Source: Patescibacteria group bacterium (GTDB lineage: Bacteria > Patescibacteriota > Microgenomatia > JAMCZE01). From it: a stretch of DNA of 64,000 bases. The stretch covers positions 62,456 to 126,455 of the forward strand of contig JAMCZE010000001.1 of the NCBI GenBank assembly GCA_023485845.1, written 5' to 3'. Each line of letters begins with the position of its first letter. The stretch's first letter is position 1. Positions 672 through 51,575 of the stretch are shown here, in pieces. The notes below the pieces were generated by a model. The model ran no database searches. It saw nothing but the letters and a program-made list of their open reading frames with translations, and was not told the DNA's origin. The position numbers were made by a program, and so were the translations under genes.

Positions 672-1447
672 AAAAAGTTTATCTTTCCGTGGTGATTCCC
701 TCATATAACGAGACGGAGAATTTGCGCCGGGGGGTGTTGGAGGAGGTTAAAAGCTACCTGTCCAAGCAAAAATATTCCTGGGAAGTGATTGTGTCCGATG
801 ATGCCTCGCCGGATGAAGAGTCGCGCCGGCTGGCCAAAGATTTTTGTGATCGAAATAGGGGTTTCACTTATTTGCAGAACCAGCACGGTGGCAAGCCGCT
901 GGCGGTTTGGGCCGGAATTCAAAAAGCCGTTGGGGAATTAGTTTTATTCACCGATATGGACCAGTCAACCCCCATCGGCGAGTTGGAAAAGTTGCTGCCG
1001 TATTTTGACCGGGGTTTTGACGTGGTCATCGGCAGCCGGGGATTGGAAAGGAAAAACTTTTCCCTGTTCCGCCAGTTGGCCTCATTTATCTTTCGTAACA
1101 TTCGCCGCTCGGTGCTGTTGCGAAAAATTGTGGACACCCAAGCCGGGTTTAAGTGTCTGCGTGCCAGTGTGGCTAGAGAGATTTTCCCGGTGATGGACGT
1201 GATCGCCAGTGCCGGAAAAGGATCGCAAGGTTGGACAGTAACGTCGTTTGATGTGGAAATGCTGGTGATTGCCCAAGACCGCGGTTATAAAATTGCCGAA
1301 GTGCCGGTTTCCTGGGCGGATCGGGACATCTCGGTGGCTAAAGCCGCCGAACGGGGCCAGGGGAAATTTATCAAAGAATCCATCGATATGCTCCAGGAAG
1401 TCTACCGAGTCAAATTTAACCAACTGCGCGGCCGATACAAAAAATGA
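668..1447 (+). CDS. GT2 glycosyltransferase, soluble DPM1-like polyprenol-phosphate sugar synthase type
   Basis: N-terminal VVIPSYNE..SDDAS..D.D signature of GT-A/GT2. Paralog of 31880..32635. ATGA overlap with upstream gene. Confidence 0.8.
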   Translation: MKKVYLSVVIPSYNETENLRRGVLEEVKSYLSKQKYSWEVIVSDDASPDEESRRLAKDFCDRNRGFTYLQNQHGGKPLAVWAGIQKAVGELVLFTDMDQSTPIGELEKLLPYFDRGFDVVIGSRGLERKNFSLFRQLASFIFRNIRRSVLLRKIVDTQAGFKCLRASVAREIFPVMDVIASAGKGSQGWTVTSFDVEMLVIAQDRGYKIAEVPVSWADRDISVAKAAERGQGKFIKESIDMLQEVYRVKFNQLRGRYKK

Positions 1448-2496
1448 TTATCTTTTTCTATCTTCTTGTCTTAGCCGTCCTTGGCGTTTATTCCTATTCG
1501 CAGATTGACCTTAATCTAACTCTTCTCCAAACACCGTGGTTCCTTTCTTTCCAGCACTTGATGATTCAACTTGGTTATTTTAATCGTCTGCTCTCGACGG
1601 CCATTTTTGCCGGATTGTTGCTTTTGCTCTTTTTATTCTACCTTCTCCTTTTGCGACAGAAACCGAATTTGTTCATTCTGGTTGCCGGGGTGGTGGTCCT
1701 GACGCTGTTTGCCTACCCGGCTTTCTCCCATGATTTTTTTAATTATCTTTTTGACGCGAGAATAGTTACCCACTATGGCCAAAATCCTTACTTTTTTAAA
1801 GCCCTGGATTTCCCCACCGACACTTGGACGCGGTTTATGCAGTGGACGCACCGGACCTATCCCTATGGCCCCATCTGGCTGGCTCTCACCGTGCCGCTTT
1901 CCTATCTTGGCTTTGGTAAGTTTATTCTCACCGTTTTTAATTTTAAAATCATGTTTGCCGCGGCCTATGTTGGCTCGGTGGTTTTGATAAAAAAGTTGTC
2001 CGGAGTGAAGAACGCTCTTTTTTTTGCTGCTAACCCATTGGTCATTATTGAGGGACTGGTTAGCCCGCATTTAGATGCGGTAATGGCCTTCTTTTTTCTT
2101 TTTGCCCTTTATCTTTTGCCCCGGCAACGGTTATTGGCAATGATTTCTGTTTTACTCTCCGGGGGGGTTAAGTTTTTGACCTTTGTCACCCTGCCGTTTT
2201 TTTTCTGGCCGAAAAAAATAGTCGAGCGGTCCTTAGTTATGCTTTTGCTGGTTTTAATTCCGGTGATCATACTACGAGAAGCCTATTCCTGGTATTTCCT
2301 GCCACCATTGGCGGTGGTGGCGCTGATTAACAATCGGACCCTTTGGATTCTGGCGGTGGCCACCACTTTCGGATTACTGCTGCGTTATTTGCCCTTTCTC
2401 TATCTTGGCCAGGAAAGTTTGGCCCCGGAGAATCTTTTGACAATTGTTCCGGTGGTGCTATGCGGTTTAGGTCTTACCTTTTACCGGCGGCGCTGA
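1444..2496 (+). CDS. Polytopic membrane protein, GT-C superfamily (DUF2029/GT87-like mannosyltransferase-like)
   Basis: About 9 predicted TM helices. Loop motif SHDFFNYLFDARI..GQNPYFF..YPYGP is shared with 27612..28976 and 5461..6588. No HMM was run. Confidence 0.55.
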   Translation: MIIFFYLLVLAVLGVYSYSQIDLNLTLLQTPWFLSFQHLMIQLGYFNRLLSTAIFAGLLLLLFLFYLLLLRQKPNLFILVAGVVVLTLFAYPAFSHDFFNYLFDARIVTHYGQNPYFFKALDFPTDTWTRFMQWTHRTYPYGPIWLALTVPLSYLGFGKFILTVFNFKIMFAAAYVGSVVLIKKLSGVKNALFFAANPLVIIEGLVSPHLDAVMAFFFLFALYLLPRQRLLAMISVLLSGGVKFLTFVTLPFFFWPKKIVERSLVMLLLVLIPVIILREAYSWYFLPPLAVVALINNRTLWILAVATTFGLLLRYLPFLYLGQESLAPENLLTIVPVVLCGLGLTFYRRR

Positions 2497-14132: not shown

Positions 14133-14150
14133 TCTTGTATAATAACAGTT
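14133..14150. promoter_or_regulatory. 18-bp divergent junction with perfect TATAAT 8 nt before ATG 14151 and a TATTAT on the opposite strand 7 nt before ATG 14132
   Basis: attcttgTATAATaacag read directly. The geometry implies leaderless starts in both directions. Confidence 0.3.
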
Positions 14151-18113: not shown

Positions 18114-18114
18114 A

Positions 18115-18921
18115 ATGAAACTTTCCGCGATTGTTTTTGTTTTTTGGCCCGAGGAAGAAAATTATGTTGCGGCATGTTTGCAAACCGTATCTTTTGCCGA
18201 CGAGATTATTGTTATTGATAATGGGGCCACGGCAAAAACGCTAGCGGTGTGCAAAGAATATACCCCAAAGATTTTCCACACGGACTCTAAGAATTTTTCT
18301 GACCATCATAATCTTGGAAAACAGAAAGCCACCGGAGACTGGCTGCTTTATGTCGATGCCGATGAACGGGTTTCCGCTGGTCTGGCAGACGAAATTAAAA
18401 GTGAACTGGCCAAGCCGTCGGCGGCGGCCTACGAGCTGCGCCGGGTGAATTTCTTTTTGGGAAAAAAGGTTCGTTTTGGTGACCGCTACCCCGACTATGT
18501 CACCCGGCTTTTTCAAAAAGATAAGTTGGTTGGCTGGAAAGGGGAGATCCATGAAAGTTCCAAGGTTGATGGGGAAATCGGCCGGCTAAGCCAACCTTTA
18601 TATCATTTAACTCACCGTGACATCTATTCGATGCTTGCAAAGACGGCGAATTTTGCCGAACATGAGGCTAATCTCCGGCTGGCGGCCGGCCATCCTCAAA
18701 TCTCCGGCTGGCGGCTGCTGCGGATTTTTGCCACCGAGATGTTTAATCGCCTGATTAAACTTCAAGGTGTTCGTGGGGGGACGGAGGGTTGGATCGACGG
18801 CATCTTCCAGTCCTTCTCCCTGTTTATTGCCTATGTTCGCCTCTGGGAGCTCCAGCGCAGGCTATCATTAGCCGAGACATATAAGGAAATTGACAAAAAG
18901 ATCATAAGCGGAGAATTATGA
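18115..18921 (+). CDS. GT2 glycosyltransferase, WaaE/KdtX-like
   Basis: ATG 2 nt after the upstream stop. LSAIVFV..EEENY..EIIVIDNG..YVDADE..GW.DG pattern. Paralog of 35553..36428. Confidence 0.65.
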   Translation: MKLSAIVFVFWPEEENYVAACLQTVSFADEIIVIDNGATAKTLAVCKEYTPKIFHTDSKNFSDHHNLGKQKATGDWLLYVDADERVSAGLADEIKSELAKPSAAAYELRRVNFFLGKKVRFGDRYPDYVTRLFQKDKLVGWKGEIHESSKVDGEIGRLSQPLYHLTHRDIYSMLAKTANFAEHEANLRLAAGHPQISGWRLLRIFATEMFNRLIKLQGVRGGTEGWIDGIFQSFSLFIAYVRLWELQRRLSLAETYKEIDKKIISGEL

Positions 18922-19982
18922 AAGTGGGGATTTTTAGTCCGTATTTTGCAACCACGATTGGTGGGGGAGAGCGCTATGTTCTCACCGTCGCCGAGTTTTT
19001 TCTTAAGCGTGGTGATCAAGTGGACATTTTTTGGACCGGCGACCACAATGTGGCCGACATAAAAGAGAAATTCAATCTGGATTTAGCCGGTGTCCATTTT
19101 CGGCCGGATGTTTTCTTTAATAAAACCAATCGTTTCAATAAGGTCGTTGTGACGGCTGCTTATGACTTAATGTTTTTCCTGTCTGATGGCAGCATTCCCC
19201 TAAGTTTTGCCAGGAAAAACATTCTCCACTTCCAGACACCGTTTCACTATGACAATCAACGGACGCTGACTAATAAACTTAAATTGGCCCGATTCCAGTC
19301 AGTGGTTTGTAATTCCGCATTTACAAAAAGTTTTATTGATAAAACGTATGGGATCAACAGCAAGATTCTTTATCCCCCGGTGGATGTGGCGAAATTTTCT
19401 GTTGGCAAAAAAGAAAAACTAATCGTCTCCGTTGGTCATATTTATGGTCATATTCGCCCCAAGTGCCAGGACATAATGATTAAAACTTTCACTGCCATGG
19501 TGAAAGAAAAAAAATTAGCTGGCTGGAAATTGGCTTTAATCGGATCGGTGCACAATGATTCCGAAGATGAGCTGGTGATGCTCAAGCGCTTGGCTAAAGG
19601 CTATCCGGTCGAGATTATCACCGATGGACCATTTCGGGTAGTTAAAGATTATCTTTCCCGGGCGGCCATTTATTGGCATGCGGCCGGTTTCGGGGTGGAC
19701 TTAGAAAAAGAACCCGAGAAAGCGGAACATTTCGGCATGTCCACTGTGGAAGCCATGGCCGCCGGTGCTGTGCCGGTGGTTTTTAACGGCGGCGGGCAGC
19801 GTGAGGTCGTAAATGACGGTGTTGACGGGTTCTTTTGGAACACAACCGACGAGTTGTGTGACCGGACACTTCAGCTGGTGAACAACCCTAAACGTTGCCA
19901 TGCTTTGGCCAAACAGGCTGAAGAAAAATCAAAGACCTTTAGTAAGGAGAAATTTTATGCCGCGCTTGAAAAAATTTTTTAA
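18918..19982 (+). CDS. GT4 (GT-B fold) glycosyltransferase
   Basis: GGAG 4 nt upstream. C-terminal EHFGMSTVEAMAAGAVPVV..GG (E-x7-E region of Glycos_transf_1). Confidence 0.8.
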   Translation: MKVGIFSPYFATTIGGGERYVLTVAEFFLKRGDQVDIFWTGDHNVADIKEKFNLDLAGVHFRPDVFFNKTNRFNKVVVTAAYDLMFFLSDGSIPLSFARKNILHFQTPFHYDNQRTLTNKLKLARFQSVVCNSAFTKSFIDKTYGINSKILYPPVDVAKFSVGKKEKLIVSVGHIYGHIRPKCQDIMIKTFTAMVKEKKLAGWKLALIGSVHNDSEDELVMLKRLAKGYPVEIITDGPFRVVKDYLSRAAIYWHAAGFGVDLEKEPEKAEHFGMSTVEAMAAGAVPVVFNGGGQREVVNDGVDGFFWNTTDELCDRTLQLVNNPKRCHALAKQAEEKSKTFSKEKFYAALEKIF

Positions 19983-22104
19983 ATTTTTTCCGCTGATTTT
20001 TCTGGTCGCGTTCGTTATCATTGTTTTTCGCCAGTTTTTCTTTTCCGGACAATTGCCAATCCCGGCGGACACCATCGTTGGTCTCTATCATCCTTGGCGT
20101 GATGCTCTGGCCGGTCAGTACCCTAATGGGCTGCCCTTTAAGAATTTCCTAATTACTGATCCGGTTCGCCAGACTTACCCCTGGCGGCAGTTGGCCATGT
20201 CCGTTCTTAAAAGTGGGCAGGTGCCCTGGTGGAATCCCTACTCGTTTTCCGGGGCCCCATTGTTAGCTAACTTACAGTCGGCAGTTTTTTATCCCCTAAA
20301 CCTGCTTTACATTTTTGATAATTTTCCCTTGGTTTGGTCCTGGCAGATTGTCTTCCAAGTTATCCTCGGTGGGCTGTTCATGTGGCTTTATCTGCGTCAC
20401 TTTCGGCTTCACCTTTTTGCCCAAGCCCTGGGGGTTCTAACCTGGGTGGGCAGCGGATTTTGGCTGTCCTGGTTGGAGTGGAACACCCTGGTTCAAGCCG
20501 TTCTTTGGTTACCGTTGTTGTTGTTATGTGTGGAGAAGTTAAATTTTAAATATGGATTAATTTTTGTTTTTGCTCTGACGGCCAGTTTTTTGGCCGGTCA
20601 CCTGCAAACCTTTGCTTACGTGTTCTCTGTTGTTTCTTTATACATCATGGTGCGCCGGCCGCGTCTTATTGCCAGGTTCTTGCTTCTTTATCTGTTATTT
20701 TTTGCTATAACTGCCCCGGTGTGGTGGCCGGCCTTTGGTTTTATCCAACAATCAGCCCGCAGTGCCGACCAGTCGGCAGTTGGCCGGGTCGATTGGTTTT
20801 TGCCTTGGCAGAACCTGGCCCAATTTGTTGCCCCGGATTTTTTTGGCAACCCGGCAACGCTAAATTATTTTGGGGTTTGGAACTACCAGGAGTTTATCGG
20901 CTATACCGGCATCGCTGGTTTGGTCTTTTCGTTGCTTGCCGTTTTCTTTCGACGGGATAAGAAAACACTTTTCTGGGGGACCTTGGCAGTTCTTTGTCTG
21001 GCGTTGGCCTTGCCGACACCATTGGCAAAGATTATGCCCCAACCGGCTCAACCAACCAGATTGTTGTCGATTATTGATTTTTGTCTGGCCATGTTGGCAG
21101 CCTTAGGGTTGGATCTCTATCTGCACCGGTCGCGAAGAATTTTCTGGTTGGTCCCGATTACAGTTTTAATGATAGTCCTGGTTCTTTTTGTTGTTGCCGC
21201 AAAACTTTCTTTAGCGGTAAGTTTACATAATCTCTATCTGCCGATTGCTCTGGCGGCAATGACATTAGTCTTGTTCATTAACAGGAAACTTGCCATCTTG
21301 ATTTTGCTTTTGGCCCTCTTTGACCTGTCACGCTTTTTTATTAAATTTGAATCCTTTTCTAATCCCACTTGGCTTTTTCCCCAAACGAAAGTGGTGTCTT
21401 TTTTGCAAGATCAAACAAGGAAAGACACTTTTCGCATTGCCGCCACGGACGACCGGATTTTCCCCCCAAACTTTTCGGTTGATTATAAACTTCAGATGGT
21501 CTCCGGCTATGACCCGCTATATTTGTTGCGTTATGGGGAATTTGTTGCCGCCATGGAGCGGGGGAAGCCGGACATTTCTGCCCCACTAGGTTTCAACCGA
21601 ATTATCACGCCGAAAAATTATCGTAGCAAACTCTTTAATTTGCTCAATGTTAAATATTTGTTATCGCTTGACCCGGTTGCTGATCCTCAATATCAGTTAG
21701 TTTTCCAGGAGAGGGAAACAAAAGTTTATGAGAACAAGGCAGTTTTGCCTCGGGCGTTTTTCGTGGCGCAGGTGGTTAGTTCATCTGGTGAGCAGGACAC
21801 CATTAATAGAATGTTTGCCGCTGATTTTGATCCGGCTAACACGGCCGTTGTTCAGAACCAAAGTTTTTTTTCTCATCCCGGTCAGGCGCAGATAAAAATT
21901 TATAACGAAAATTCGGTGGTAGTGGAGACCAGCAACACTGATGCCGGCTTTCTGGTGTTAACGGACAACTTCTATCCTGGTTGGCAAGCAACTATTGATG
22001 GACAAAAAACCACAATCTATTTAACCGATTTTGCTTTCCGGGGGGTCGTGGTTCCCGCTGGCCAACACGTCGTGCGCTTTTATCTATATAATAGTGTTCT
22101 ATGA
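19957..22104 (+). CDS. YfhO-family GT-C membrane glycosyltransferase
   Basis: AGGAGA RBS 6 nt upstream of ATG 19957 (track start 19900 rejected). DPVRQTYPW..WNPYSFSGAPLLANLQSAVFYPLN motif; C-terminal ..VVVPAGQHVVRFYLY. Confidence 0.7.
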   Translation: MPRLKKFFKFFPLIFLVAFVIIVFRQFFFSGQLPIPADTIVGLYHPWRDALAGQYPNGLPFKNFLITDPVRQTYPWRQLAMSVLKSGQVPWWNPYSFSGAPLLANLQSAVFYPLNLLYIFDNFPLVWSWQIVFQVILGGLFMWLYLRHFRLHLFAQALGVLTWVGSGFWLSWLEWNTLVQAVLWLPLLLLCVEKLNFKYGLIFVFALTASFLAGHLQTFAYVFSVVSLYIMVRRPRLIARFLLLYLLFFAITAPVWWPAFGFIQQSARSADQSAVGRVDWFLPWQNLAQFVAPDFFGNPATLNYFGVWNYQEFIGYTGIAGLVFSLLAVFFRRDKKTLFWGTLAVLCLALALPTPLAKIMPQPAQPTRLLSIIDFCLAMLAALGLDLYLHRSRRIFWLVPITVLMIVLVLFVVAAKLSLAVSLHNLYLPIALAAMTLVLFINRKLAILILLLALFDLSRFFIKFESFSNPTWLFPQTKVVSFLQDQTRKDTFRIAATDDRIFPPNFSVDYKLQMVSGYDPLYLLRYGEFVAAMERGKPDISAPLGFNRIITPKNYRSKLFNLLNVKYLLSLDPVADPQYQLVFQERETKVYENKAVLPRAFFVAQVVSSSGEQDTINRMFAADFDPANTAVVQNQSFFSHPGQAQIKIYNENSVVVETSNTDAGFLVLTDNFYPGWQATIDGQKTTIYLTDFAFRGVVVPAGQHVVRFYLYNSVL

Positions 22105-24181
22105 GCAGGAAAGTTGGTGTTCTTTTAATTTTGGTCACTTTTCTCGGGGCGTTGCTGCGATTTCGCGACATCACCATTAACCCGCCGAACATTAACACTG
22201 ACGAGGCGGCTATCGGCTACAATGCTTATTCAATTTTAAAAACCGGCCGTGATGAATATGGCCAGCCCTTCCCGTTAGCCTTTCGATCCTTTGATGACTA
22301 TAAACCGCCGCTCTACATTTATATGACCGTTCCGTCAGTGGCAGTTTTTGGCCTTAATGAATTTGCCGTTCGATTCCCCTCGGCTCTGCTAGGCATTCTT
22401 GCTATCCCCATCGTCTTTTTCCTAACTAGGGAGTTACTGGACAACCTGCCTGCCAGCAGGCAGATTGGGTTACTGTCTTCATTTTTGTTGGCGATTTCTC
22501 CCTGGCACATCCAGTTTACCCGAACGGCTTATGAAACCGGAAGCAATGCTTTTTTCACAGGGCTTGGTCTGCTGCTTTTTTTGAAGGGTTTAAAAAACAA
22601 GTGGTTTTTGGTTGGGGCGGGCATCGTTTTTGGCCTGCAAACTTATCTCTATCAGGCCAGCAAAGTTTTTGTTCCGATGCTTATTCAATTTTAAAAACCG
22701 GCCGTGATGAATATGGCCAGCCCTTCCCGTTAGCCTTTCGATCCTTTGATGACTATAAACCGCCGCTCTACATTTATATGACCGTTCCGTCAGTGGCAGT
22801 TTTTGGCCTTAATGAATTTGCCGTTCGATTCCCCTCGGCTCTGCTAGGCATTCTTGCTATCCCCATCGTCTTTTTCCTAACTAGGGAGTTACTGGACAAC
22901 CTGCCTGCCAGCAGGCAGATTGGGTTACTGTCTTCATTTTTGTTGGCGATTTCTCCCTGGCACATCCAGTTTACCCGAACGGCTTATGAAACCGGAAGCA
23001 ATGCTTTTTTCACAGGGCTTGGTCTGCTGCTTTTTTTGAAGGGTTTAAAAAACAAGTGGTTTTTGGTTGGGGCGGGCATCGTTTTTGGCCTGCAAACTTA
23101 TCTCTATCAGGCCAGCAAAGTTTTTGTTCCGATGCTGCTGGCCTGCCTGCTGGTAATTTTCTTTCGCCGGGTGCCCTGGCGGCAATTTATCTGGTTGGCG
23201 TTGCCCCTTGGTCTTCTTCTAATCCCGGTGGTCATAACCACTCTTTCACCAACCGGAATTCTTCGGGTTCAGGGAACCAGCATTTTCCAGGACCCCAAAC
23301 CACTAGAGCGCTATGGGGCCCTGGTGAAGACCGATTGGCTGAGAAATGATAATAAATCGGTGCTGTTGTTTCATCCGAAAGTGTTGACATACTTCCAGGA
23401 CATTTTGGCTGGCTATCTGTCCCATTTCCGGCCGGATTTTTTCTTAGTTAGCAACGGCGATCCAAAAGTAACCTACGTTCCCCAGGTGGGCCTGATGAAC
23501 TTGTGGGTCTACCCGTTTTTCCTGGCCGGTTTTTATTTCCTATTTAAAAGGCGTGATAAAACGGCCGCGGCAGTGCTTGTTTCCTGGTTCTTAATTGCCC
23601 CGATTCCGGCAGCGGTTACTATTGGGTTGCCTAATTCTGTCCGCAGTGCGGTTTTTTTGCCCGATTTGCAGATTATTGCGGCCTATGGTTTGTTTAGTCT
23701 TTTCCCCAAGCTGGCGGGGATTTTAAAAACTGCTTTATTTCTTGCGGCAGTTTATCTGTTTGCTTTTTATGTCCATATGCTCTTTGTTCATGCCCCTGTT
23801 GCTTCCGCCCAGCAATGGTATTACGGCTATAAACAGATGGTGGAACAAACGCTTGAACTTCAAAAAGATTATAAGCAAGTTTACGTTTCCACCGATCTGG
23901 ACCAGCCGCAGATTTTTTATCTTTTCTATCTTAAATATGACCCCCAACATTATCTTAATGTTGACGGCGGCACCAAGGGTGGAGGGTTTGATGAACAAGG
24001 GAATCGCTTTGCTAATTATTACTTTCGCTCTTTGGATTTTGGGCAAAATCGCTCAAACTTCGATATTCTTTTCGTTGGCCCGCCAAAGGAATTTCCCACC
24101 ACGGTTAAGCCAATAAAGATTTTGTATGATCCCGACGGTCAGCCCTTTGTCTATTTTGTCAAACCCAGCTTGCCGACATAA
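22101..24181 (+). pseudogene. PMT/ArnT-like GT-C gene split by an internal 455-bp tandem duplication (ORFs 22101..22694 and 22601..24181)
   Basis: The N-terminal ORF carries the TDEAAIGYNAYSILKTG DE motif and stops at LIQF* just inside the second repeat copy. The second ORF resumes in another frame. Removing one 455-bp copy restores a single ~541-aa ORF closely similar to 30402..31883. Confidence 0.6.
22222..23136. repeat. Perfect tandem duplication, 455-bp unit x2, junction microhomology ATGCT
   Basis: 22222..22681 equals 22677..23136 base for base as far as checked. Both strands yield identical shadow ORFs (22319..22510 and 22774..22965). Unit length is not a multiple of 3. Confidence 0.85.
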
Positions 24182-25650
24182 TGAAAAAGTTTTTACTGCC
24201 CGCCACGTTTATCTTAATCATTGTCCTGGCATTCTTTCTTCGGTTTTACCACTTGACTCTTGACCCGCCCCATCTTTATTGGGACGAAGCCTCGATTGCC
24301 TATAATGCCTACTCAATTAACCAGACGGAAAAGGATGAGTGGGGAGCAGCCGCCCCGGTGCTTTTTAAGGCCTTCGGGGAATACAAATTTCCGGCCTATA
24401 TCTATCTCACAGCGGCGTCGCAGCGGCTTTTCGGCCTCACCGATTTTGCTGTCCGTTTCCCCTCTGCCATCGCCGGGGTCTTAATAGTTGTCGTGGTGTT
24501 TTTTCTCACCAAAGAACTATTTGGTAATTTGATCACGGCCTTATTGTCTTCATTTTTTGTAGCGGTTTCTCCCTGGGCACTGCAATTTTCCCGGGCCGGC
24601 TTTGAAGCAAACCTGGCCGTCCTTCTCATCGTCTCCGGAATCTATTTTTTCCTGCGCAAGGCCTATCTTATTTCCTTGATGCTAATCGCCGCCGCTCTCT
24701 ACACTTATCAGGCTGCCTTTGTTAGTGTTCCTTTGGTTTTGCTGTTGCTAATTATCTCTTTTTCTCACACAAAAAGATTAATCCTGCCGTTAATTGTCTT
24801 TGCCGTTGTTTTGCTGCCGCTGGCGAATGCCTATCTTTTCTCTGGCGGTCGTGCCCGGGCGGCCAGTGAAAACTTTTTAAATATGGCCGGCAATCCGGTG
24901 ACAAATCTCACCAATAATTACGTGGCAAATTTTTCCCTGGATTATCTTTTCTTCCATGGGGATCAGGACGGCCGCCACTCGGTGAAAAAAATCGGCGAGT
25001 TATATCTTTGGCAGCTGCCGTTAATTTTGGCCGGCTGCTATGTTCTTCTTCGCCGGCCATCCAAAGCAGGAGCGCTGGTTTTTGGGTTGATCTTGGCCGG
25101 CAGTTTGCCCCCGGCTTTGACCACTGTTTCTCCCCATGCCCTGCGCGGGCTGCTGGCAATGGTCGGCTGGCAGCTTTTGTCTGCCAGCGGCGCGGTTTGG
25201 CTATTGGCAAAAACGCCGAAGTTCTGGCGCCTTTTAGCTATTGCGGTGATTGGATATGCCCTGATTATTTATCTAAATCTCTATTGGGTTAATTACCCAG
25301 CAGCCTACGCGGCTGACTGGCAAGATGGCCAGCGCCAGACTGTGGAATACTTGAAGCGGGTGGAAGGAAATTATAGCGAAATCTTAGTTAGTCAAGACCT
25401 AAATCCGATTTATATTTTTCTCTATTGGCCCGTTGACCCAAGGGTTGTTCAGGACAGCGGTCACAACGAACAGACTTTTTTGAAGTTTCATTATGTTGAT
25501 CTTGGTGGAGGGTTTGACCCGGTTAAACAATATGCCGGCAGAAAAGTTTTGGTGGTGACGCCGGGGTGGTATAACAATGAGTCTTGGACCATTTTACGAG
25601 CGATAAAGTCTGCCAGTGGAGACTATGTCTTTCGAATTTATGAATTTTGA
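24181..25650 (+). CDS. GT-C glycosyltransferase, PMT/ArnT-like
   Basis: LYWDEASIAYNAYSI DE motif after the first TM. 489 aa polytopic. TAATG overlap. Confidence 0.7.
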   Translation: MKKFLLPATFILIIVLAFFLRFYHLTLDPPHLYWDEASIAYNAYSINQTEKDEWGAAAPVLFKAFGEYKFPAYIYLTAASQRLFGLTDFAVRFPSAIAGVLIVVVVFFLTKELFGNLITALLSSFFVAVSPWALQFSRAGFEANLAVLLIVSGIYFFLRKAYLISLMLIAAALYTYQAAFVSVPLVLLLLIISFSHTKRLILPLIVFAVVLLPLANAYLFSGGRARAASENFLNMAGNPVTNLTNNYVANFSLDYLFFHGDQDGRHSVKKIGELYLWQLPLILAGCYVLLRRPSKAGALVFGLILAGSLPPALTTVSPHALRGLLAMVGWQLLSASGAVWLLAKTPKFWRLLAIAVIGYALIIYLNLYWVNYPAAYAADWQDGQRQTVEYLKRVEGNYSEILVSQDLNPIYIFLYWPVDPRVVQDSGHNEQTFLKFHYVDLGGGFDPVKQYAGRKVLVVTPGWYNNESWTILRAIKSASGDYVFRIYEF

Positions 25651-26068
25651 TTTTGCATGTAACATCGGACACATTCAACTTGATGTTCCCCATCAGGTTT
25701 GGGAAGCTGTGGTGGCCGGAGGCAATGTCGACCCTTTGATTTCCCGGTTTTTACACTCCACGCCGTCTTTCTATGCTAATAATCTTCTTCGTTGCTATCT
25801 TTCCTATTTTTCCCCGGACTTTCTAACCCAAGCGTTCACTCTTGTTGGCCTGATTCTTTTCGGCCTGGGGTTATGGCACCTGGTGATCAATAATCACTGG
25901 AAACTTCTCGCTCTCGTTCTTCTCGCCCCGCTCTCACCACTTTTCAATATCCCCCAAAGCGGACTATATCAAGGCGCCATTCTCTATTTTACTCTCGTCC
26001 TAGTGATACTTTTCGGGATTTATAATTTATTTGTATGGTTAGTAAAGATAAAATCCTCCTGGTGGTAG
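25640..26068 (+). CDS. Hypothetical small membrane protein (3 TM)
   Basis: ORF bridging two GT-C genes, with hydrophobic segments. The start could be 25616 or 25640. No recognisable motif. Confidence 0.35.
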   Translation: MNFDFACNIGHIQLDVPHQVWEAVVAGGNVDPLISRFLHSTPSFYANNLLRCYLSYFSPDFLTQAFTLVGLILFGLGLWHLVINNHWKLLALVLLAPLSPLFNIPQSGLYQGAILYFTLVLVILFGIYNLFVWLVKIKSSWW

Positions 26069-27627
26069 TTGTTTTTTTGGCGTTTGTTTTGCGGTTCTAC
26101 CAGTTGGGGAGTAATCCGCCAAGTTTATATTGGGATGAAGCGTCACTAGGTTATAACGCCTTTTCTATTGCCACCACCCTGCGTGATGAGCACGGCGAGT
26201 TTTTACCCTTAACCCGCTTTATTGCCTTTGGTGATTATAAAGCGCCCGGCTACATTTATGCAGCCGCTGCCGCCGTCAAACTTTTCGGCCTTTCCGAGTT
26301 AACCGTCCGTTTGTCTTCCGCTCTGGCCGGCACCTTATTGGTTTTAGTGACCTATTTTTTAGTTAAGGAGTTAATTAATGATAAGCAGATAGCTTTAATT
26401 TCTTCGTTTTTGGTCGCCATTTCACCGTGGTCATTGCAATTGAGCCGGGGAGCTTTCGAGGCTAATCTCGCTACCCTTTTCTCCACCGCTGGCGTTTGGT
26501 TTTTTCTTATTGCTCTTCGCCGTAAATCAGCTATCAGCTATCAGCTATCAGCTATCAGCTTCATCTTGTCAATGTACACCTTCAATTCTCACCGGATCTT
26601 CGTGCCGCTGATGATTGGAGCACTACTACTAATTTTTTCCCGTCGTCTCTGGATGCAGAAAAAACATGTTGGCCTGTTTCTTGTATCTTGTTTCTTGTTT
26701 CTTGTTCCCTTGTTATTGTATGCCCGGACCCGAGAAGCCCAGCTGCGTTTTAATGAGGTCAGTTGGCTTAATGATTCTGCCCCGATTGAGTTGTCTAACC
26801 AACGGATCGCTTATGATCATGATGTCTGGTGGGCAAAAATTATTCATAACCGCCGGGTGGTCTACAGCCTGGAGTTTCTCAAACACTACACTGACGCTTT
26901 TAGCACCGACTTCCTATTTATAAAGGGTGACGTTAATGAGCGGTTGTCTATCCAAACCATGGGCGAGCTATATTTAATTGATCTGCCGTTTTTGTTGGCT
27001 GGCCTTTATCTGTTGGTTCGGCGCCCCAATAAATCGACGGCCGTCATCTTGGCCTGGGCATTATTGGCACCAATTCCGGCGGCCATGGCTCGGGAAACGC
27101 CCCACGCGCTGCGGACACTTAATCTTTTGCCGATTCCCCAGATTATCACCGCCATCGGAGTGGCGTGGTCTATCAAGAAATTTCCTAAATTCCTTATCCC
27201 CCTGACCCTCCTAATCTCCCTTAGTGTCTTATTTTATCTTCACAGTTATTATATTGATTATCCGAAAAAATATGATCTGGCTTGGCAGTATGGTTATAAA
27301 CAATTGGTCAGCTATGTGGCGGCGCATGAGAATAACTACGATCATATTAGTGTCACCGAGACCTATGGCCGGCCTTATATTTATTTTCTCTTCTACGAGC
27401 AATACCCCCTGGAGAAATACTTGCAGACAGTGAGCACAGACCGGGATTGGTATGGCTTTTGGTATGTCCACGGCTTTGATAAACTGGTTTTTGGAGACAC
27501 AGCGCCGGGGCAGGGGAGCACGCTTTTTGTCCGCGGGCCGGACGAAGCTCCGGCGGGCGCAAAATTGGTCGATACAATTGATGATTTGAATCATAAACCT
27601 GTCTTTTTGTTATGGGCATCGCGTTAG
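26035..27627 (+). CDS. GT-C glycosyltransferase, PMT/ArnT-like
   Basis: LYWDEASLGYNAFSIA motif; 530 aa. Contains (ATCAGCT)5 and a (GTTTCTT)n tract in frame. Confidence 0.7.
   Translation: MVSKDKILLVVVVFLAFVLRFYQLGSNPPSLYWDEASLGYNAFSIATTLRDEHGEFLPLTRFIAFGDYKAPGYIYAAAAAVKLFGLSELTVRLSSALAGTLLVLVTYFLVKELINDKQIALISSFLVAISPWSLQLSRGAFEANLATLFSTAGVWFFLIALRRKSAISYQLSAISFILSMYTFNSHRIFVPLMIGALLLIFSRRLWMQKKHVGLFLVSCFLFLVPLLLYARTREAQLRFNEVSWLNDSAPIELSNQRIAYDHDVWWAKIIHNRRVVYSLEFLKHYTDAFSTDFLFIKGDVNERLSIQTMGELYLIDLPFLLAGLYLLVRRPNKSTAVILAWALLAPIPAAMARETPHALRTLNLLPIPQIITAIGVAWSIKKFPKFLIPLTLLISLSVLFYLHSYYIDYPKKYDLAWQYGYKQLVSYVAAHENNYDHISVTETYGRPYIYFLFYEQYPLEKYLQTVSTDRDWYGFWYVHGFDKLVFGDTAPGQGSTLFVRGPDEAPAGAKLVDTIDDLNHKPVFLLWASR
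26526..26560. repeat. Perfect heptanucleotide repeat (ATCAGCT)5 inside CDS
   Basis: 35 bp, 5 exact copies, read directly. Encodes ..SAISYQLSAIS..; a one-unit change shifts the frame. Confidence 0.9.
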
Positions 27628-28976
27628 TAATCAGTTTTGTGTTTTACACCCTACTTTCCTGGGCGATTTTATTTCGTGATGCCTGGACGTTAGAAGTGTT
27701 ACGAACAAAGTTTTACCCCGGACAAGCAGCTTTAATCAACCAGATTGAACTATTCCTTCAGCCATTAAAACTGAACACTATTCCTACCCTATTATTTGCT
27801 GTTTTTGCCATTTTTGCGTTTATTGTTTACTTTTTGGCCCTGCGAAAACGAATAGCAGCCTCGAAAATCTTGATTTTCTCTTTGCTTTTCCAAATTATCG
27901 TCTTTTTCTCTTATCCCATCCTTTCCACTGACGTTTTGAGTTACATCCTCTCGGATCGGATCGCCGTGGTTTATCATCAGAGCGTCTGGACCACTAAACC
28001 GAATGTTTTTAACCACGACCCCTACTATTATTTGGTTTATCCCATTTATGCCGCTTCTGATTGGACAAACCAGACTCGGATCTACGGCCCGGTCAATCAG
28101 GTGATCTACTCGGCCGTGACCGCGATCTCCGGGAATGATTTTCTGACTAATCTAGCGGCGCATAAGTTAGTGGTGTTGGTTTTTAATCTGCTGACAATGG
28201 CCCTGGTCTATAAGATTTTGAAGGAGCATTTCCCTGATAAATTAAATTTTAGCCTGGTGTTGCTTTTTTGGAACCCGTTATTTATTTTGGAAACAGTCGG
28301 TTCCGGCCACAACGACATCTTGATGGTTTTCTTTATGTTGCTCTCCTATCTTTTCTATCTTGGAAAGAAGCCAATTTTGGTGGCGCTGGCACTGGCACTG
28401 GCCGTTAATGTCAAGTCCACCGCCTTGCTCTTGGCCACGTTTTACACTGTAGTCTTTCCTCTAACATTTTTTGCGCCCTTTTGCGCCTTTGCATTTGCTG
28501 GATTTTTGACAATGGGAGTGAGTTTGTCGGCCTTTATCAGGCGGACGGCTTTTAGCACCACCCTTTATTGGCAATCCCTGCCGCAACAAGTGGCAAGGGT
28601 CTTGCCTTTTGGCACGCGCGTTCTCACGCCGGTCTTTTTGGTTATTTACGCTTTTCAGTGTCTGCGCGGCTGGCTGACCCGGCGCGATCCGTTAGTTTTG
28701 TATGGCCAGGCAATTCTTTTTTATCTTCTTTTTGCCCTGGGGGCCTATTGGAATTGGTATAGTCTTTGGGTCCTGACCGCATTTGCCTTCTTGGGGCGGG
28801 GACTTTGGAGCCGGATCGCAGCCGCTTTCACTTTCACTTCAGCCCTTGCCTATCCGCTCTATTGGCTCTCATTGCGATTTAACTACCAACATCCCCTCTG
28901 GCCCGTGATAATATATTTAGTGATTGCCGGGGGACCGGTGGGGGTTTTTCTCTATGATAAAGTTAAAGCGCGCTGA
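27612..28976 (+). CDS. Polytopic membrane protein, DUF2029/GT87-like GT-C
   Basis: STDVLSYILSDRI..NHDPYYYLVYP..IYGP loop motifs are shared with 1444..2496. About 10 TM. Confidence 0.55.
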   Translation: MGIALVISFVFYTLLSWAILFRDAWTLEVLRTKFYPGQAALINQIELFLQPLKLNTIPTLLFAVFAIFAFIVYFLALRKRIAASKILIFSLLFQIIVFFSYPILSTDVLSYILSDRIAVVYHQSVWTTKPNVFNHDPYYYLVYPIYAASDWTNQTRIYGPVNQVIYSAVTAISGNDFLTNLAAHKLVVLVFNLLTMALVYKILKEHFPDKLNFSLVLLFWNPLFILETVGSGHNDILMVFFMLLSYLFYLGKKPILVALALALAVNVKSTALLLATFYTVVFPLTFFAPFCAFAFAGFLTMGVSLSAFIRRTAFSTTLYWQSLPQQVARVLPFGTRVLTPVFLVIYAFQCLRGWLTRRDPLVLYGQAILFYLLFALGAYWNWYSLWVLTAFAFLGRGLWSRIAAAFTFTSALAYPLYWLSLRFNYQHPLWPVIIYLVIAGGPVGVFLYDKVKAR

Positions 28977-33584: not shown

Positions 33585-33587
33585 AAC

Positions 33588-38017: not shown

Positions 38018-38020
38018 ATT

Positions 38021-42606: not shown

Positions 42607-43083
42607 ATGAAGTTGCTGGTTATCACAGAATTTAACCCGGAAAAGCTTGGGGGAGCAGAGATGCATGCCAGCCAAGTTTTAAAACGGATCAGGCCAAAGT
42701 TTTCCGCGGTTATTGTTCCCAAGATTTCCTACCCCTACGTCCCCAATTTTTCCTGGATTTTTTATATGCTTTTTGCCACACCGGTTATTTTCTGGGAGAC
42801 GATTCGATCTAAGCCGGATTTGCTTTGGGCCACCCTGGATTTTCCCCAGGCCCAGGTGGGAGCAGTTATTAAGGTGCTCACTAGTAAGCCGCTTTACGTC
42901 ACTTCGCAAAATCCCCTGTTGGGGGAGGAAGAGTTTGTTGGTTTGGGCGGGAAATTAGTCAAATATTTGGTTTCCTTTGCGTTTGCCCGGGCCGATGTGG
43001 TGGCCGCTGTCAGCACTTATTCCGCCAACCTGGCGAAAAAACTCGGGGCCAAAAAAGTGGTTATTATTCCCAACGGCGTATGA
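42607..43083 (+). CDS. GT4 N-terminal Rossmann-domain fragment, ends ..VVIIPNGV*
   Basis: Stops just after the IPNG motif that normally precedes the C-terminal domain. ATGA overlap with the next ORF. Confidence 0.55.
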   Translation: MKLLVITEFNPEKLGGAEMHASQVLKRIRPKFSAVIVPKISYPYVPNFSWIFYMLFATPVIFWETIRSKPDLLWATLDFPQAQVGAVIKVLTSKPLYVTSQNPLLGEEEFVGLGGKLVKYLVSFAFARADVVAAVSTYSANLAKKLGAKKVVIIPNGV

Positions 43084-43601
43084 TTAAAATCATTACCACT
43101 TCATCACTGATCCCGCGCAACGGCATTGACGTGCTAATTAACGCCTGTAAGCTATTAGCTATCAGCTATCAGCTCGTTATTGCTGGAGACGGGCCGGAGC
43201 GAGCAAAGTTGGAAAAGCTGGCTGCCGACATGCCGGTGAAGTTTCTTGGTCGTGTCCCCAATAATCTAGTCCCTAGTCTACTAGTCACTAGTCACTTATT
43301 TGTCCGTCCGTCCCGTTTTGAGGGCTTTGGCAGTTCATTTATTGAGGCAATGGCCGCCGGATTGCCGGTGATCGGCACGCCGGTCGGGGGAATCGTCGAT
43401 TTTCTTAAAGACGGCCAAACCGGGCTTTTGGTTCCGCCGGATGACCCACCGGCCCTGGCTGCCGCCATCACCCGGTTGACAAAGGACAAAAAGCTGGCCA
43501 AAAAACTGTCCGAAGACGGTCGGGAGCTGGTGGAGAAAAAATACCGCTGGGACAAAATCGCCGACCACGTCTATTTGGAAATGAAGAAGCTATGTGGTTA
43601 A
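43080..43601 (+). CDS. GT4 C-terminal (Glycos_transf_1) domain fragment
   Basis: ..SLIPRNGIDVLINA..VIAGDGPE..RFEGFGSSFIEAMAAGLPVIGT.. This is the C-terminal half of a GT4. Carries an (AGCTATC)n tract. Confidence 0.55.
   Translation: MIKIITTSSLIPRNGIDVLINACKLLAISYQLVIAGDGPERAKLEKLAADMPVKFLGRVPNNLVPSLLVTSHLFVRPSRFEGFGSSFIEAMAAGLPVIGTPVGGIVDFLKDGQTGLLVPPDDPPALAAAITRLTKDKKLAKKLSEDGRELVEKKYRWDKIADHVYLEMKKLCG
43150..43174. repeat. Imperfect heptanucleotide tract, same unit as 26526..26560 (AGCTATT AGCTATC AGCTATC AGCT)
   Basis: Read directly. Shares the exact 18-mer AGCTATCAGCTATCAGCT with the (ATCAGCT)5 locus. Confidence 0.8.
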
Positions 43602-49520: not shown

Positions 49521-50345
49521 ATGACGAAGGAAATAGTAATAAAGCCCAACGGGTCTTTTTTAGATGTTGATCTTCGAGAAATCTGGCGATATCGAGAGCT
49601 TTTTTATATTTTTGCGTGGCGGGATATCAAATTACGATATAAACAGACTGTGTTGGGTATAATTTGGGTTCTTTTTCAACCATTGGTCTCCACCGGTATT
49701 TTTAGTATCTTTTTTGGAAAGATTGCAAAAATCCCCTCTGACAATTTACCATACCCCCTTTTTGTGCTCGCCGGGCTGGTGATTTGGAATTTTTTTTCTA
49801 GCGCATTATCGGCATCAAGCCAAAGTTTGATCGGAAACGAAGGAATAATTAAAAAAGTATATTTTCCCAGACTAATTCTTCCGATTTCCTCGGTTGTCAC
49901 CGCCGGTGTTGATTTTTTTATAACATTTCTGGTTCTTTTGGTTGCTGTTGTTTATTTTGGTTACCTTCCTAGTCTATTAATCCTACCGGTTCTCCCGGTT
50001 CTATTAATAATCACGATTCTTATGGCCTCTGGTCTTGGAATGTTTATGGCATCGCTCAATGTTAAATATCGGGATGTGCGATTTATTCTGCCTTTTTTTA
50101 TTCAGATTGGACTCTTTGTTACGCCGGTAATTTATCCCCTATCGATAATTTATGATTGGAGGAAATGGTTTTTGATCATTAATCCCCTGACAGGAGTTAT
50201 TGAAACACTACGAGCATTAATAGTTGGCAGAGCGCAACCTGATTTTAGTTTGTTGATTATCGGTCTAATTGTGTCAATTCCGGTTTTTTGTTTCGGGCTT
50301 TTTTATTTTCGGCGAACTGAAGCCTATTTTGCCGATATTGCGTGA
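49521..50345 (+). CDS. wzm: ABC-2 type polysaccharide export permease (Wzm/TagG/KpsM family)
   Basis: N-terminal ..REIWRYRELFYIFAWRDIKLRYKQTVLGIIW (ABC2_membrane signature). 6 TM. Confidence 0.8.
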   Translation: MTKEIVIKPNGSFLDVDLREIWRYRELFYIFAWRDIKLRYKQTVLGIIWVLFQPLVSTGIFSIFFGKIAKIPSDNLPYPLFVLAGLVIWNFFSSALSASSQSLIGNEGIIKKVYFPRLILPISSVVTAGVDFFITFLVLLVAVVYFGYLPSLLILPVLPVLLIITILMASGLGMFMASLNVKYRDVRFILPFFIQIGLFVTPVIYPLSIIYDWRKWFLIINPLTGVIETLRALIVGRAQPDFSLLIIGLIVSIPVFCFGLFYFRRTEAYFADIA

Positions 50346-50351
50346 GTGCTT

Positions 50352-51575
50352 ATGGATTCAATAGTCGAGGTTAATAAACTATCCAAAAAGTATCGCCTTG
50401 GCGGTCAGCAGCCATATCTGACCCTTAGGGATACCCTGGCGGAACTTGTCCGTCACCCAATTATCAAGAGGGACAATCATGAATTTTGGGCCCTTAGGGA
50501 TGTTACTTTCCGGGTTGCTCCCGGAGAGGTGGTTGGGATTATCGGGCGTAATGGAGCCGGTAAGAGCACTTTGTTAAAAATAATCAGCCGCATCACTTGC
50601 CCAACTGCGGGGGATGTGAGGTTACAAGGCAACGTCTCCAGCTTGCTAGAGGTTGGCACCGGTTTCAGCCCCGAGTTAACAGGCCGGGAGAATATCTTTC
50701 TTAACGGAGCAATATTAGGAATGAGCCGGTCAGAAATCAGGCGCCGCTTTGACGCCATCGTTGATTTTGCCGAGACAGAAAAATTTCTTGATACACCAGT
50801 TAAATATTATTCCTCGGGGATGTATATGCGCCTGGCATTTTCCGTGGCTGCCCATCTGGAGCCAGATATTTTACTAGTCGATGAAGTGCTTGCAGTCGGT
50901 GATGCTGAATTCCAAAAAAAATGCTTAGGGAAGATGGAGGAGGTTCGTAATAGGCAGGGGCGAACGATTCTTTTTGTCAGTCATAATATGAAAACAATTG
51001 AGCAGCTGTGCAGCCGGTGTTTGCTTATTGACAAGGGAAAGATTGTTATGGATGGTGACAGCCAAAAAGTGATCAGTCATTATCTTAACAAACAAAAGAT
51101 TCAAAGTTCGGCAATGCTTTTCCCAGTTGATAAAAACAAAATCGCGCAAATAACAAAAATTGCTATTTTAAATTCCAAATATCAGTCCCGGTCGGAAGTG
51201 CCCATCAGTGAAGATTTTTACATTAATATTGAGATGAGAGTCAACCATAGGGTTAAGAAAGCATTAATAAGTATTTATTTTTATTCCCAAGGTGACTTAC
51301 TACTATTTTCAACGGAGGGCGATCATAGCGGACAATTGCTTAGTTATCCTGCTGGAAAATACAAAACCATGGTCAGAATTCCTGCGTTTTTATTTGAATC
51401 GGGTAATTATACTATCGATGTGGCCATTCAAAATCCGGGAGTGGAAATTATTGATAAGGTATCTGAAATTGGCTTCGAAGTTCTTAACCAAGATAATCCC
51501 CGAAGTCTTCTGATAAATGGCGTCGCTCATGATAAAATAGCCGTCATCTTAGACTATGAGACGAAAAAATCTTAA
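50352..51575 (+). CDS. wzt: ABC transporter ATP-binding protein Wzt/TagH type with ~160-aa C-terminal (putative glycan-binding) extension
   Basis: Walker A GIIGRNGAGKSTLL, signature YSSGMYMRLAFS, Walker B ILLVDE. C-terminal beta-rich extension. Confidence 0.85.
   Translation: MDSIVEVNKLSKKYRLGGQQPYLTLRDTLAELVRHPIIKRDNHEFWALRDVTFRVAPGEVVGIIGRNGAGKSTLLKIISRITCPTAGDVRLQGNVSSLLEVGTGFSPELTGRENIFLNGAILGMSRSEIRRRFDAIVDFAETEKFLDTPVKYYSSGMYMRLAFSVAAHLEPDILLVDEVLAVGDAEFQKKCLGKMEEVRNRQGRTILFVSHNMKTIEQLCSRCLLIDKGKIVMDGDSQKVISHYLNKQKIQSSAMLFPVDKNKIAQITKIAILNSKYQSRSEVPISEDFYINIEMRVNHRVKKALISIYFYSQGDLLLFSTEGDHSGQLLSYPAGKYKTMVRIPAFLFESGNYTIDVAIQNPGVEIIDKVSEIGFEVLNQDNPRSLLINGVAHDKIAVILDYETKKS

Follow-up and report, generated by a model that had tools for sequence, protein, structure and literature searches.

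What produced two identical 455-bp segments, lying head to tail inside a glycosyltransferase gene of an uncultured member of the Patescibacteria, and does the second segment belong to the organism or to its assembly? We addressed this question by analysing the repeat, its junction, the affected gene and the other assemblies of the same strain; all positions refer to the window, i.e. the whole 64-kb stretch of DNA that was analysed. Either the duplication arose very recently by ordinary mutation or it reflects an error of assembly. [quoted passage not shown] A minority variant or an error of the pipeline that generated this metagenome-assembled genome (MAG) is a serious rival. The parts of the duplication are listed below.

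22222..22676, plus strand: copy 1 of the 455-bp unit, from position 2 of native codon 41 to position 3 of codon 192
22677..23131, plus strand: copy 2 of the unit, equal to copy 1 base for base and missing from every other same-strain assembly that was aligned
23132..23136, plus strand: ATGCT, the microhomology partner on the distal side; both copies begin with this 5-mer
22660..22699, plus strand: the novel copy 1-copy 2 junction, GCAAAGTTTTTGTTCCGATGCTTATTCAATTTTAAAAACC, a diagnostic sequence with a single occurrence in the window
Copy 1-copy 2 junction string for read searches: GTTCCGATGCTTATTCAATT

Base-by-base comparison revealed two identical 455-bp copies, arranged head to tail at 22222-23136, and the repeat finder TRF returned the same interval with a period of 455 bp, 2.0 copies, 100% matches, 0 indels and a score of 1830. 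The two methods thus agree with the preliminary description, which had reported the copies and had taken their identity from matching shadow ORFs; these were recovered on both strands, at 22319..22510 and 22774..22965 (minus) and starting at 22601 and 23056 (plus). The run of matches at an offset of 455 extends over 460 bases, that is 455 plus the 5 bases of ATGCT, and this 5-mer starts at 22222, 22677 and 23132. The junction homology of 5 bp, likewise proposed before, is therefore present, and it fits slippage or template switching; in this sequence a microhomology of at least 5 bp is expected at 0.7% of random breakpoints (P = 0.007). The change is an exact 1x to 2x head-to-tail duplication without inserted bases, the form by which an MTD is defined. 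No other long perfect repeat was found in the 64-kb window, and no N occurs in it.

The duplication interrupts a gene on the plus strand, with the following consequences for its reading frames.

22101..24181, plus strand: GT-C (PMT_2 / GT39-GT83-like) glycosyltransferase gene that the duplication interrupts; 541 aa (1626 nt) in its native form
22101..22694, plus strand: ORF1, 197 aa, which after native residues 1-194 ends with IQF and a stop
22601..24181, plus strand: ORF2, 526 aa (MCL5431556.1), which starts at a GTG and has 26 out-of-frame leader residues ahead of native residues 42-541
22200..22205, plus strand: codons of D34 and E35, the acidic pair of the first extracytoplasmic loop, located upstream of the duplication and kept only in ORF1

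As 455 equals 3 x 151 + 2 (455 mod 3 = 2), the reading frame shifts. Translation of the ORFs bore out the earlier statement that the gene is broken into a 197-aa ORF, which keeps the DE motif, and a 526-aa ORF: ORF1 contains the first transmembrane helix (TM1), the D34/E35 loop and about five further helices, ORF2 lacks both TM1 and the D34/E35 motif, and neither of them encodes a complete GT-C core. Removal of one copy in silico restored a single 541-aa ORF, identical to the protein MCL4390447.1 (P0121). Most likely the duplicated gene is thus a null allele of one of the 14 GT-C paralogs of a glycosylation island, and the interruption may also exert polar effects on downstream paralogs through lost translational coupling. 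In the NCBI record, MCL5431556.1 (assembly with locus-tag prefix M1484) is listed as a normal "glycosyltransferase family 39 protein".

The collapsed 541-aa protein was used to establish what kind of enzyme is affected. It scored above the cut-offs of the Pfam families PMT_2 (43.2 bits, cut-off 26.1) and PMT (27.1 bits, cut-off 22.7), and the D34/E35 pair was invariant in 30/30 aligned homologs and paralogs. Its AlphaFold2 model (pLDDT 91.8, pTM 0.90) places D34/E35 after helix 3-21, and the top 29 Foldseek matches in the PDB (E <= 1e-3) were all GT-C enzymes, namely AglB/STT3/PglB, ArnT, Pmt, ALG9/12, Aft and DPY19. A single-sequence search of the PDB with the GT-C protein gave no match, and a profile search of the PDB found ArnT (5ezm, E = 1.6e-5). 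The assignment to the PMT-like GT-C enzymes, made earlier from the letters of the sequence, is therefore supported by the domain score, the invariant acidic pair and a model that matches GT-C enzymes only. The collapsed gene resembles GT-C genes of the ArnT, PMT and YfhO type (PDB 5ezm; PF13231, PF02366), whose products use sugars linked to polyprenyl phosphate, in its PMT_2 domain and predicted GT-C fold, in the conserved acidic pair after TM1 and in its neighbours, since genes for a GT2 enzyme, a Wzx-like flippase and a YfhO protein adjoin it within the 64-kb glycosylation island that holds the 14 paralogs. In contrast to this likeness, identity to the solved GT-C enzymes is only about 12-17% in the Foldseek alignments. 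A scan for promoters and terminators around the locus gave background level only.

ORF1 (TM1, the DE loop and the helices up to residue 194) and ORF2 (residues 42-541) together hold every native residue, and ORF2 is annotated by NCBI as a normal protein, hence one might suppose that the two chains assemble into an active two-chain GT-C enzyme. However, residues 42-194, with about five membrane helices, would then be present twice, which is incompatible with the compact GT-C core of the predicted model. Moreover, the GTG start of ORF2 lies within ORF1 but out of its frame, and a nonsense leader of 26 aa follows it. The listed homologs other than the window's ORF2 are single-chain proteins; those from the full-length top match down to 45% identity measure 517-555 aa. 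On account of the duplicated helices, the out-of-frame start and the single-chain homologs we rejected a split enzyme, which we regard as extremely improbable.

To place the duplicated allele in its population, the sources of the parental allele were traced by listing the members of the 90% cluster of the protein. The resulting comparison set consisted of a second MAG at NCBI (GCA_023378825.1) and of three SRA runs as assembled by Logan (SRR10278331, SRR10252151 and SRR10267473). The one-copy allele that the preliminary description had proposed to look for in population data is there: GCA_023378825.1 and all three Logan run assemblies, i.e. 4/4 other assemblies, encode the intact 541-aa protein, and the upstream YfhO gene and the intact gene share the same three Logan contigs. 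In blastn alignments, GCA_023378825.1 and the Logan contig SRR10278331_74496 showed 100.000% DNA identity to the window over 9957-22681 and 22677-38976, and at the locus they differ from it only by the extra copy (loci L001-L005 and L012). Both boundaries are present in these single-copy loci, with the ATGCT pair 455 bp apart. Further away, two Logan contigs aligned to each of the stretches 1-15464 and 33592-55199, all 100% identical to the window. Since the single-copy allele is found with 100% identical flanks, the duplication is derived and of essentially zero age. This agrees with the suggestion that the event is either very recent or artefactual, as the one-copy allele exists and no flank mismatch was seen where DNA was aligned. 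An old or maintained duplication was rejected on account of the zero differences between the copies and in the aligned flanks.

The duplicated allele itself was found in 1/5 assemblies and in 0/3 of the per-run Logan assemblies; its junction was absent from every public assembly aligned at the site other than the window, and the junction 40-mer was not found in any single-copy locus covering the site. Exact scans with a 39-mer in the unit and a 42-mer downstream yielded 0 matches in the GTDB species-representative genomes and the JGI metagenome contigs, thus the strain is not in those collections. Neither the 526-aa nor the 197-aa ORF was on record when exact matches were sought on encoding contigs, and a protein-seeded scan of genome contigs recovered only relatives at no more than 40% identity. 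No publication was found for the SRA runs or for the assembly and protein accessions. No contig of the three Logan runs breaks at the duplication site, so the junction is either absent from those runs or rare enough to have been pruned. A separate argument, that the absence of fragment proteins from a collection of 15 billion proteins would equally mean an absence of broken Logan contigs, was discarded after its control had failed, as the cut products of Logan contigs known to break in the neighbouring gene were missing from the collection as well; only the argument from the complete upstream YfhO gene was kept.

These comparisons bear directly on whether the organism has one copy only and the MAG assembler introduced the other, which we hold to be quite possible, though short of probable. 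The assembler could have traversed a loop through a few chimeric or erroneous junction reads, set a wrong repeat count or joined overlapping contig ends without merging them. The intact single-copy gene in all four other same-strain assemblies, the two aligned of which match the window base for base, and the unbroken Logan contigs speak for such an error; nevertheless, the three runs assembled by Logan are not necessarily the source of the window's MAG. The second MAG is informative in this respect. GCA_023378825.1 carries a private +1 T frameshift at window position 2043, in a different GT-C gene, and a private patch of 8 SNPs at 42728-42740, and neither change is present in any of the three Logan run assemblies, all of which encode the gene hit by the frameshift as an intact protein of 350 aa. 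An attempt to tie GCA_023378825.1 to the third Logan run through the +T frameshift was given up, because that run has the intact gene. Two MAGs of the same submission thus each contain their own frame-breaking change, in different GT-C genes. The unsupported frameshift and the SNP patch suggest a pipeline prone to errors or to minority paths, so that it may emit such paths.

Duplicated overlaps at scaffold joins and wrong repeat numbers are common local errors of MAGs (Chen et al., Genome Res 2020, PMC7111523). The locus is comparable to these errors in that a wrong copy number is possible in a coding gene and in that a CPR MAG was deposited without read-level curation. While the overlap duplications described there carry Ns at the join, this one has no Ns and an unusual microhomology. 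Neither Ns or a gap at the join nor a duplicated length of k or k-1, by which a scaffold overlap is recognised (PMC7111523), was found in the window: the length of 455 or 460 is no typical k or k-1, and the duplication stands as the sole such repeat in 64 kb. Furthermore, a blunt overlap join would give at least 5 bp of microhomology just 0.7% of the time. With this microhomology and no Ns, an MTD by template switching fits better than a blunt scaffold-overlap artefact. The junction 40-mer also brings in 25 31-mers missing from the single-copy allele. As de Bruijn assemblers need real reads for such k-mers, some reads should carry the junction if the MAG was assembled from short reads. A unitig assembler such as MEGAHIT would be unable to output a 455-bp unit two times.

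For the MTD that we favour, the following course may be envisaged. While DNA is replicated or a gap is filled, a nascent strand whose end is the ATGCT of position 577-581 of the native gene would re-pair with the ATGCT located 455 bp upstream, at position 122-126, and the 455-bp interval would then be copied a second time. Recombination or slippage that removes exactly one copy would bring back the wild type. Given the 455 bp of perfect homology between the copies, the allele is expected to be unstable, and by analogy with characterised duplications it would probably revert to wild type. MTDs with 5-8 bp of microhomology were shown to frameshift a gene and to revert at about 1e-4 (Dan et al., PNAS 2021, PMC8639346), and MTDs are reported to be universal, bacteria included (Wei et al., bioRxiv 10.64898/2026.02.28.708716). 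The present allele shares with these (PMC8639346; 10.64898/2026.02.28.708716) the short direct repeats that bound the unit (5 bp here, 5-8 bp in ssp1), the exactly two head-to-tail copies and a gene that is frameshifted and inactivated, with a wild type that could be regained by precise loss. It differs from them in the size of the unit, which is 455 bp compared to 55-92 bp in the founding examples, and in that the event is known from a metagenome assembly and not from reads or isolates. A bacterial precedent for the fate of such an allele is the tetA assay in E. coli (pSTL57, pSTL55), in which internal repeats of 101 and 787 bp render the gene null (PMC7145654) and the tandem duplications revert by precise deletion, even without RecA (PMC7145654). 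There too an internal tandem duplication makes a null allele which reverts by deletion between the repeats, recA-deleted cells included; however, the assay is artificial and plasmid-borne and is silent on the origin of duplications and on rates in Patescibacteria. Several points weigh against an MTD. An interval of 455 bp with only 5 bp of AT-rich microhomology lies at the unfavourable end for MTD formation, and the duplicated allele is known from one assembly only, next to a second MAG with private unsupported changes.

The preliminary description had also raised the possibility of a contingency-like switch. The data do not support this, as the parental allele has no hypermutable tract; the OFF allele occurs in a single assembly and in no per-run assembly. 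That the lineage repeatedly gains and loses such duplications as an ON/OFF switch of a surface-glycan transferase, in the manner of the pneumococcal capsule genes, is in our judgement very unlikely. A precedent does exist in the reversible spontaneous duplications in cap3A, cap8E and tts that lead to capsule phase variation (Waite et al. 2001, 2003), as these pneumococcal duplications are cited in PMC4243769 and PMC11163986. In those accounts, as here, an intragenic tandem duplication in a surface-polysaccharide gene turns it OFF and precise excision turns it ON. Yet in pneumococcus many independent duplications and high-frequency switching are described as shown experimentally, whereas a single event is seen here, from sequence alone, and the pneumococcal genes encode a capsule synthase or dehydrogenase, in contrast to the GT-C transferase of an uncultured member of the Patescibacteria. 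In favour of a switch, the gene sits in a 64-kb island with 14 GT-C paralogs, a neighbouring paralog carries a repeat tract at which Logan contigs break, and the other MAG has its private frameshift in another GT-C gene. ON and OFF alleles were both seen in assemblies with 100% identical flanks, each in separate assemblies. However, the duplication has a single known occurrence with no recurrent or alternative duplications, and no simple sequence repeat, invertible element or long repeat was found at the site in the parental gene. The gene contains about 778 pairs of microhomologies of at least 5 bp within 500 bp, and the ATGCT pair is just one of them. A specific 455-bp MTD with 5 bp of microhomology should arise at a very low rate, and a one-off loss-of-function mutation or an artefact explains the data equally.

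The neighbouring paralog contains a perfect (ATCAGCT)5 tract at 26526-26560, and Logan contigs break at this tract, at the very point where branching of a k=31 graph would be expected if alleles of at least 6 copies coexist with it. Tracts of n = 5 or 8 keep the reading frame, while n = 3, 4, 6 or 7 would cut the product down to 189-241 aa. This tract is a better lead to phase variation than the duplication. It is also very unlikely, in our view, that the duplicated gene represents a genuine OFF allele in a Patescibacteria (CPR) population whose surface glycans are diversified by reversible replication-error knock-outs of single GT-C paralogs. Were this the case, MTDs, slippage of (ATCAGCT)n and single-base frameshifts like that of the other MAG would be different expressions of a single contingency strategy, for which pressure from phages or from host attachment is a plausible driver.

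If the second copy is an artefact, the locus serves as a practical warning, since the chimeric 526-aa protein MCL5431556.1 stands in NCBI as a normal protein, although it has a nonsense N-terminus of 26 residues and is devoid of TM1 and of the acidic pair of the catalytic loop. Either way the biology is not new, as it is already established that duplications of this kind occur, that they revert and that capsule phase variation makes use of them. If the duplication is real, it would represent a clean natural MTD at age zero in an uncultured ultra-small bacterium, with the parental allele in the same population, and the affected gene would be among the surface-glycosylation genes, on which phages or hosts are expected to exert pressure.

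The whole window (1-64000) is a glycosylation island, with nearly all genes on the + strand and with overlapping start and stop codons. According to Pfam it contains 14 GT-C-type genes (nine PMT_2/PMT, two MptA_B-family, one GT87 and two YfhO) and many GT2 and GT4 genes, together with sugar-nucleotide enzymes, a Wzx-like flippase and a Wzm/Wzt-type ABC transporter.

Features of the island and of the duplicated locus (window coordinates; strand where relevant).
1444..2496 (+), MptA_B-family GT-C gene, 350 aa
15745..17190, Wzx-like flippase
22101..24181 (+), GT-C gene carrying the duplication; 541 aa when one copy is removed
22101..22694, ORF1, 197 aa
22222-22676, copy 1 of the 455-bp unit
22601..24181, ORF2, 526 aa
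22677-23131, copy 2 of the 455-bp unit
26035..27627 (+), GT-C paralog ORF
26526-26560, perfect (ATCAGCT)5 tract in this paralog
26675-26706, imperfect (TGTTTCT)n tract, x4.6, in the same paralog
42607..43083 (+), N-domain ORF of a GT4 enzyme, 158 aa, Glyco_transf_4
43080..43601 (+), C-domain ORF of a GT4 enzyme, 173 aa, Glycos_transf_1
43145-43174, degenerate AGCTATC-type heptamer tract
49521..51575, Wzm/Wzt-type ABC transporter

Two repeat finders returned a single array at 22222-23136 (period 455, 2.0 copies, 100% matches, 0 indels), and direct comparison showed the copies to be identical base for base, as the preliminary description had claimed. At an offset of 455 the identity runs over 460 bases, with ATGCT opening copy 1, opening copy 2 and following directly 3' of copy 2, which bears out the 5-bp junction microhomology described earlier. 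Other long perfect repeats were absent from the 64-kb window. As 455 = 3 x 151 + 2, the frame is broken; the ORF list contains both resulting ORFs, and the shadow ORFs reported earlier do appear twice, on both strands. All factual points of the preliminary description were borne out. The unit spans native codon 41 position 2 to codon 192 position 3, so that ORF1 comprises native residues 1-194 followed by IQF, and ORF2 a 26-aa out-of-frame leader, translated from copy 1, followed by native residues 42-541. Deletion of one copy restores the 541-aa ORF. ORF1 keeps TM1 and, as previously noted, the DE motif (D34/E35). Loss of function is likely, since ORF1 is missing the C-terminal two thirds and ORF2 lacks both TM1 and D34/E35. 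As gene starts here overlap the stop codons before them (22101-22104 and 24181), stopping early may in addition impair translational coupling.

The collapsed 541-aa protein scored above the Pfam cut-offs for PMT_2 (43.2 bits, cut-off 26.1) and PMT (27.1 bits, cut-off 22.7). In an alignment with 25 homologs and four window paralogs D34 and E35 were invariant, and the alignment profile matched ArnT (5ezm, E = 1.6e-5). The significant Foldseek PDB matches of its AlphaFold2 model (pLDDT 91.8, pTM 0.90) were all GT-C enzymes (AglB/STT3/PglB, ArnT, Pmt, ALG9/12, Aft/Emb, DPY19), and the earlier assignment as a PMT-like GT-C gene holds. ORF2 is identical to NCBI MCL5431556.1, from a 138,870-bp contig, labelled 'MAG: glycosyltransferase family 39 protein [Patescibacteria group bacterium]'; this record should be regarded as the chimeric product of a disrupted gene. 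The one further member of its 90%-identity cluster, MCL4390447.1 (541 aa), is identical to the collapsed translation. In the protein collection MCL5431556.1 represents this cluster and is ranked before the intact form.

The intact 541-aa protein is encoded on JAMCSA010000023.1 (102,529 bp) of GCA_023378825.1, another MAG from this strain, as well as on three Logan contigs (assemblies of SRA runs), of which one, SRR10278331_74496, is listed by name; look-ups elsewhere in the same region gave SRR10252151 and SRR10267473 as the other two runs with this strain. The one-copy allele envisaged in the preliminary description was thus found. Up to 22681, and once more from 22677 onward, the other MAG and SRR10278331_74496 match the window at 100.000% identity (0 mismatches, 0 gaps over 9957-22681 and 22677-38976), and the sole difference at this locus is the extra 455 bp. 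These single-copy loci hold the two normal boundaries 455 bp apart, and the 40-mer across the copy1-copy2 join (22660..22699) is absent from them. The SRR10252151 and SRR10267473 contigs are 100% identical to the window over 1-15464 and 33592-55199. Among the matches listed, the next-closest homologs are just 64% identical, and those with at least 45% identity are all full-length and single-copy (517-555 aa), so the single-copy state is ancestral. The duplication is derived and, with no substitutions anywhere in the copies or aligned flanks, its age is effectively zero, in agreement with the very recent (or artefactual) event proposed before.

A template switch at the 5-bp microhomology would yield such a tandem duplication, and its structure agrees with the published definition of microhomology-mediated tandem duplications (MTDs), which are frameshifting, use 5-8 bp of microhomology and revert to exact wild type (PMC8639346); MTDs are reported to be universal in bacteria (bioRxiv 10.64898/2026.02.28.708716). 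We give slightly better than even chances to the junction being present in cells of the sampled population. That the second copy is instead a local assembly error mimicking a tandem duplication is a serious, somewhat less probable alternative. In favour of a real event, the overlap-duplication artefact known from MAGs brings Ns (PMC7111523), of which the window has zero, and neither 455 nor 460 equals an assembler k. Microhomology of at least 5 bp was found at only 0.7% of random breakpoints in the window (with period 455 and also with random periods of 100-1500), and the junction adds 25 31-mers missing from the one-copy allele, which a de Bruijn assembler should be unable to invent. On the other hand, exactly three Logan contigs carry the upstream YfhO gene in full (715-aa call), and three of the same size class carry the intact 541-aa gene; one contig is listed for each gene, in both cases SRR10278331_74496. 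Logan drops k-mers seen once and then applies SPAdes-like graph simplification (PMC12424806); with the single-copy path unbroken, this means that these three runs have the junction rarely or not at all, the MAGs possibly having been built from others. Literature searches with the accessions had no hits.

The other MAG likewise has private differences seen in none of the three Logan assemblies. It carries an extra T at window 2043 (loci L009/L022, GGTCAT to GGTTCAT), splitting into 202 + 137 aa the MptA_B-family gene that is intact in the window and all three runs, so each MAG has its own frame-breaking change, in different GT-C genes. In locus L007 of that MAG, eight substitutions within 13 bp (42728-42740) change SYPYV to YHFFG, in frame, in the N-domain ORF of the GT4 enzyme. 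This patch is absent from the window and two aligned Logan contigs, and its variant sequence is not found elsewhere in the window. A micro-recombination or strain patch is one explanation, an error in local assembly the other. This GT4 enzyme is apparently split, its two ORFs sharing an ATGA overlap, and the other MAG and both Logan contigs checked have identical gene calls; the degenerate heptamer tract, 65 bp into the C-domain ORF, is related to the tract at 26526. Given the duplication and these private changes, both MAGs depart from the dominant per-run sequence, the pipeline either picking minority paths or erring locally. The duplication is either a derived, zero-age, microhomology-type event or an assembly error mimicking one. 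If real, it very probably knocks out one GT-C paralog among many, being one more instance of a well-known type of event.

In a contingency locus, some sequence feature must raise the frequency of the forward event. The preliminary description had also raised a contingency-like switch, i.e. reversible ON/OFF of a surface-glycan gene by duplication; this is unsupported, and we consider it very improbable. The parental allele lacks hypermutable sequence favouring the forward event, the ATGCT pair is one of ~778 direct-repeat pairs of at least 5 bp within 500 bp in the gene, a long interval with short AT-rich microhomology is least favourable for MTD formation, and there is one occurrence only. 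With longer microhomology pairs nearby, ATGCT is not uniquely favoured. At the left breakpoint (22219-22226) lies the 8-mer CAATGCTT, which recurs inside the unit (22544-22551) and again in copy 2. The backward step, copy loss, could plausibly be fast by analogy with 101- and 787-bp tandem repeats in tetA, whose precise deletion gives reversion in E. coli even when recA has been deleted (PMC7145654), and with ssp1 MTDs, reverting at ~1e-4 (PMC8639346). The closest biological precedent, as related in citing papers, comes from pneumococci, in which the capsule varies in phase through spontaneous duplications in cap3A, cap8E and tts (Waite 2001, 2003, as cited by PMC4243769 and PMC11163986).

A better candidate for phase variation than the 455-bp duplication is the (ATCAGCT)n tract of the neighbouring paralog. 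With n = 5 or 8 the gene is in frame (530 and 537 aa), while n = 3, 4, 6 or 7 gives 189-241 aa; both MAGs have five copies. Two Logan contigs stop exactly at 26555 (SRR10278331_74496, aligned; SRR10267473_26227, from contig coordinates) and one downstream contig begins exactly at 26531, while in the third run the breaks fall at other points of this paralog (~26354 and ~27345 by contig arithmetic). A uniform 35-bp tract gives no branching in a k=31 graph; these positions would be branch points if it coexisted with an allele of at least six repeats or with some other origin of 31-mers made purely of the repeat. The contig ends hint, indirectly, at variable repeat number, and (ATCAGCT)n is a candidate tract for slipped-strand phase variation in a CPR bacterium.
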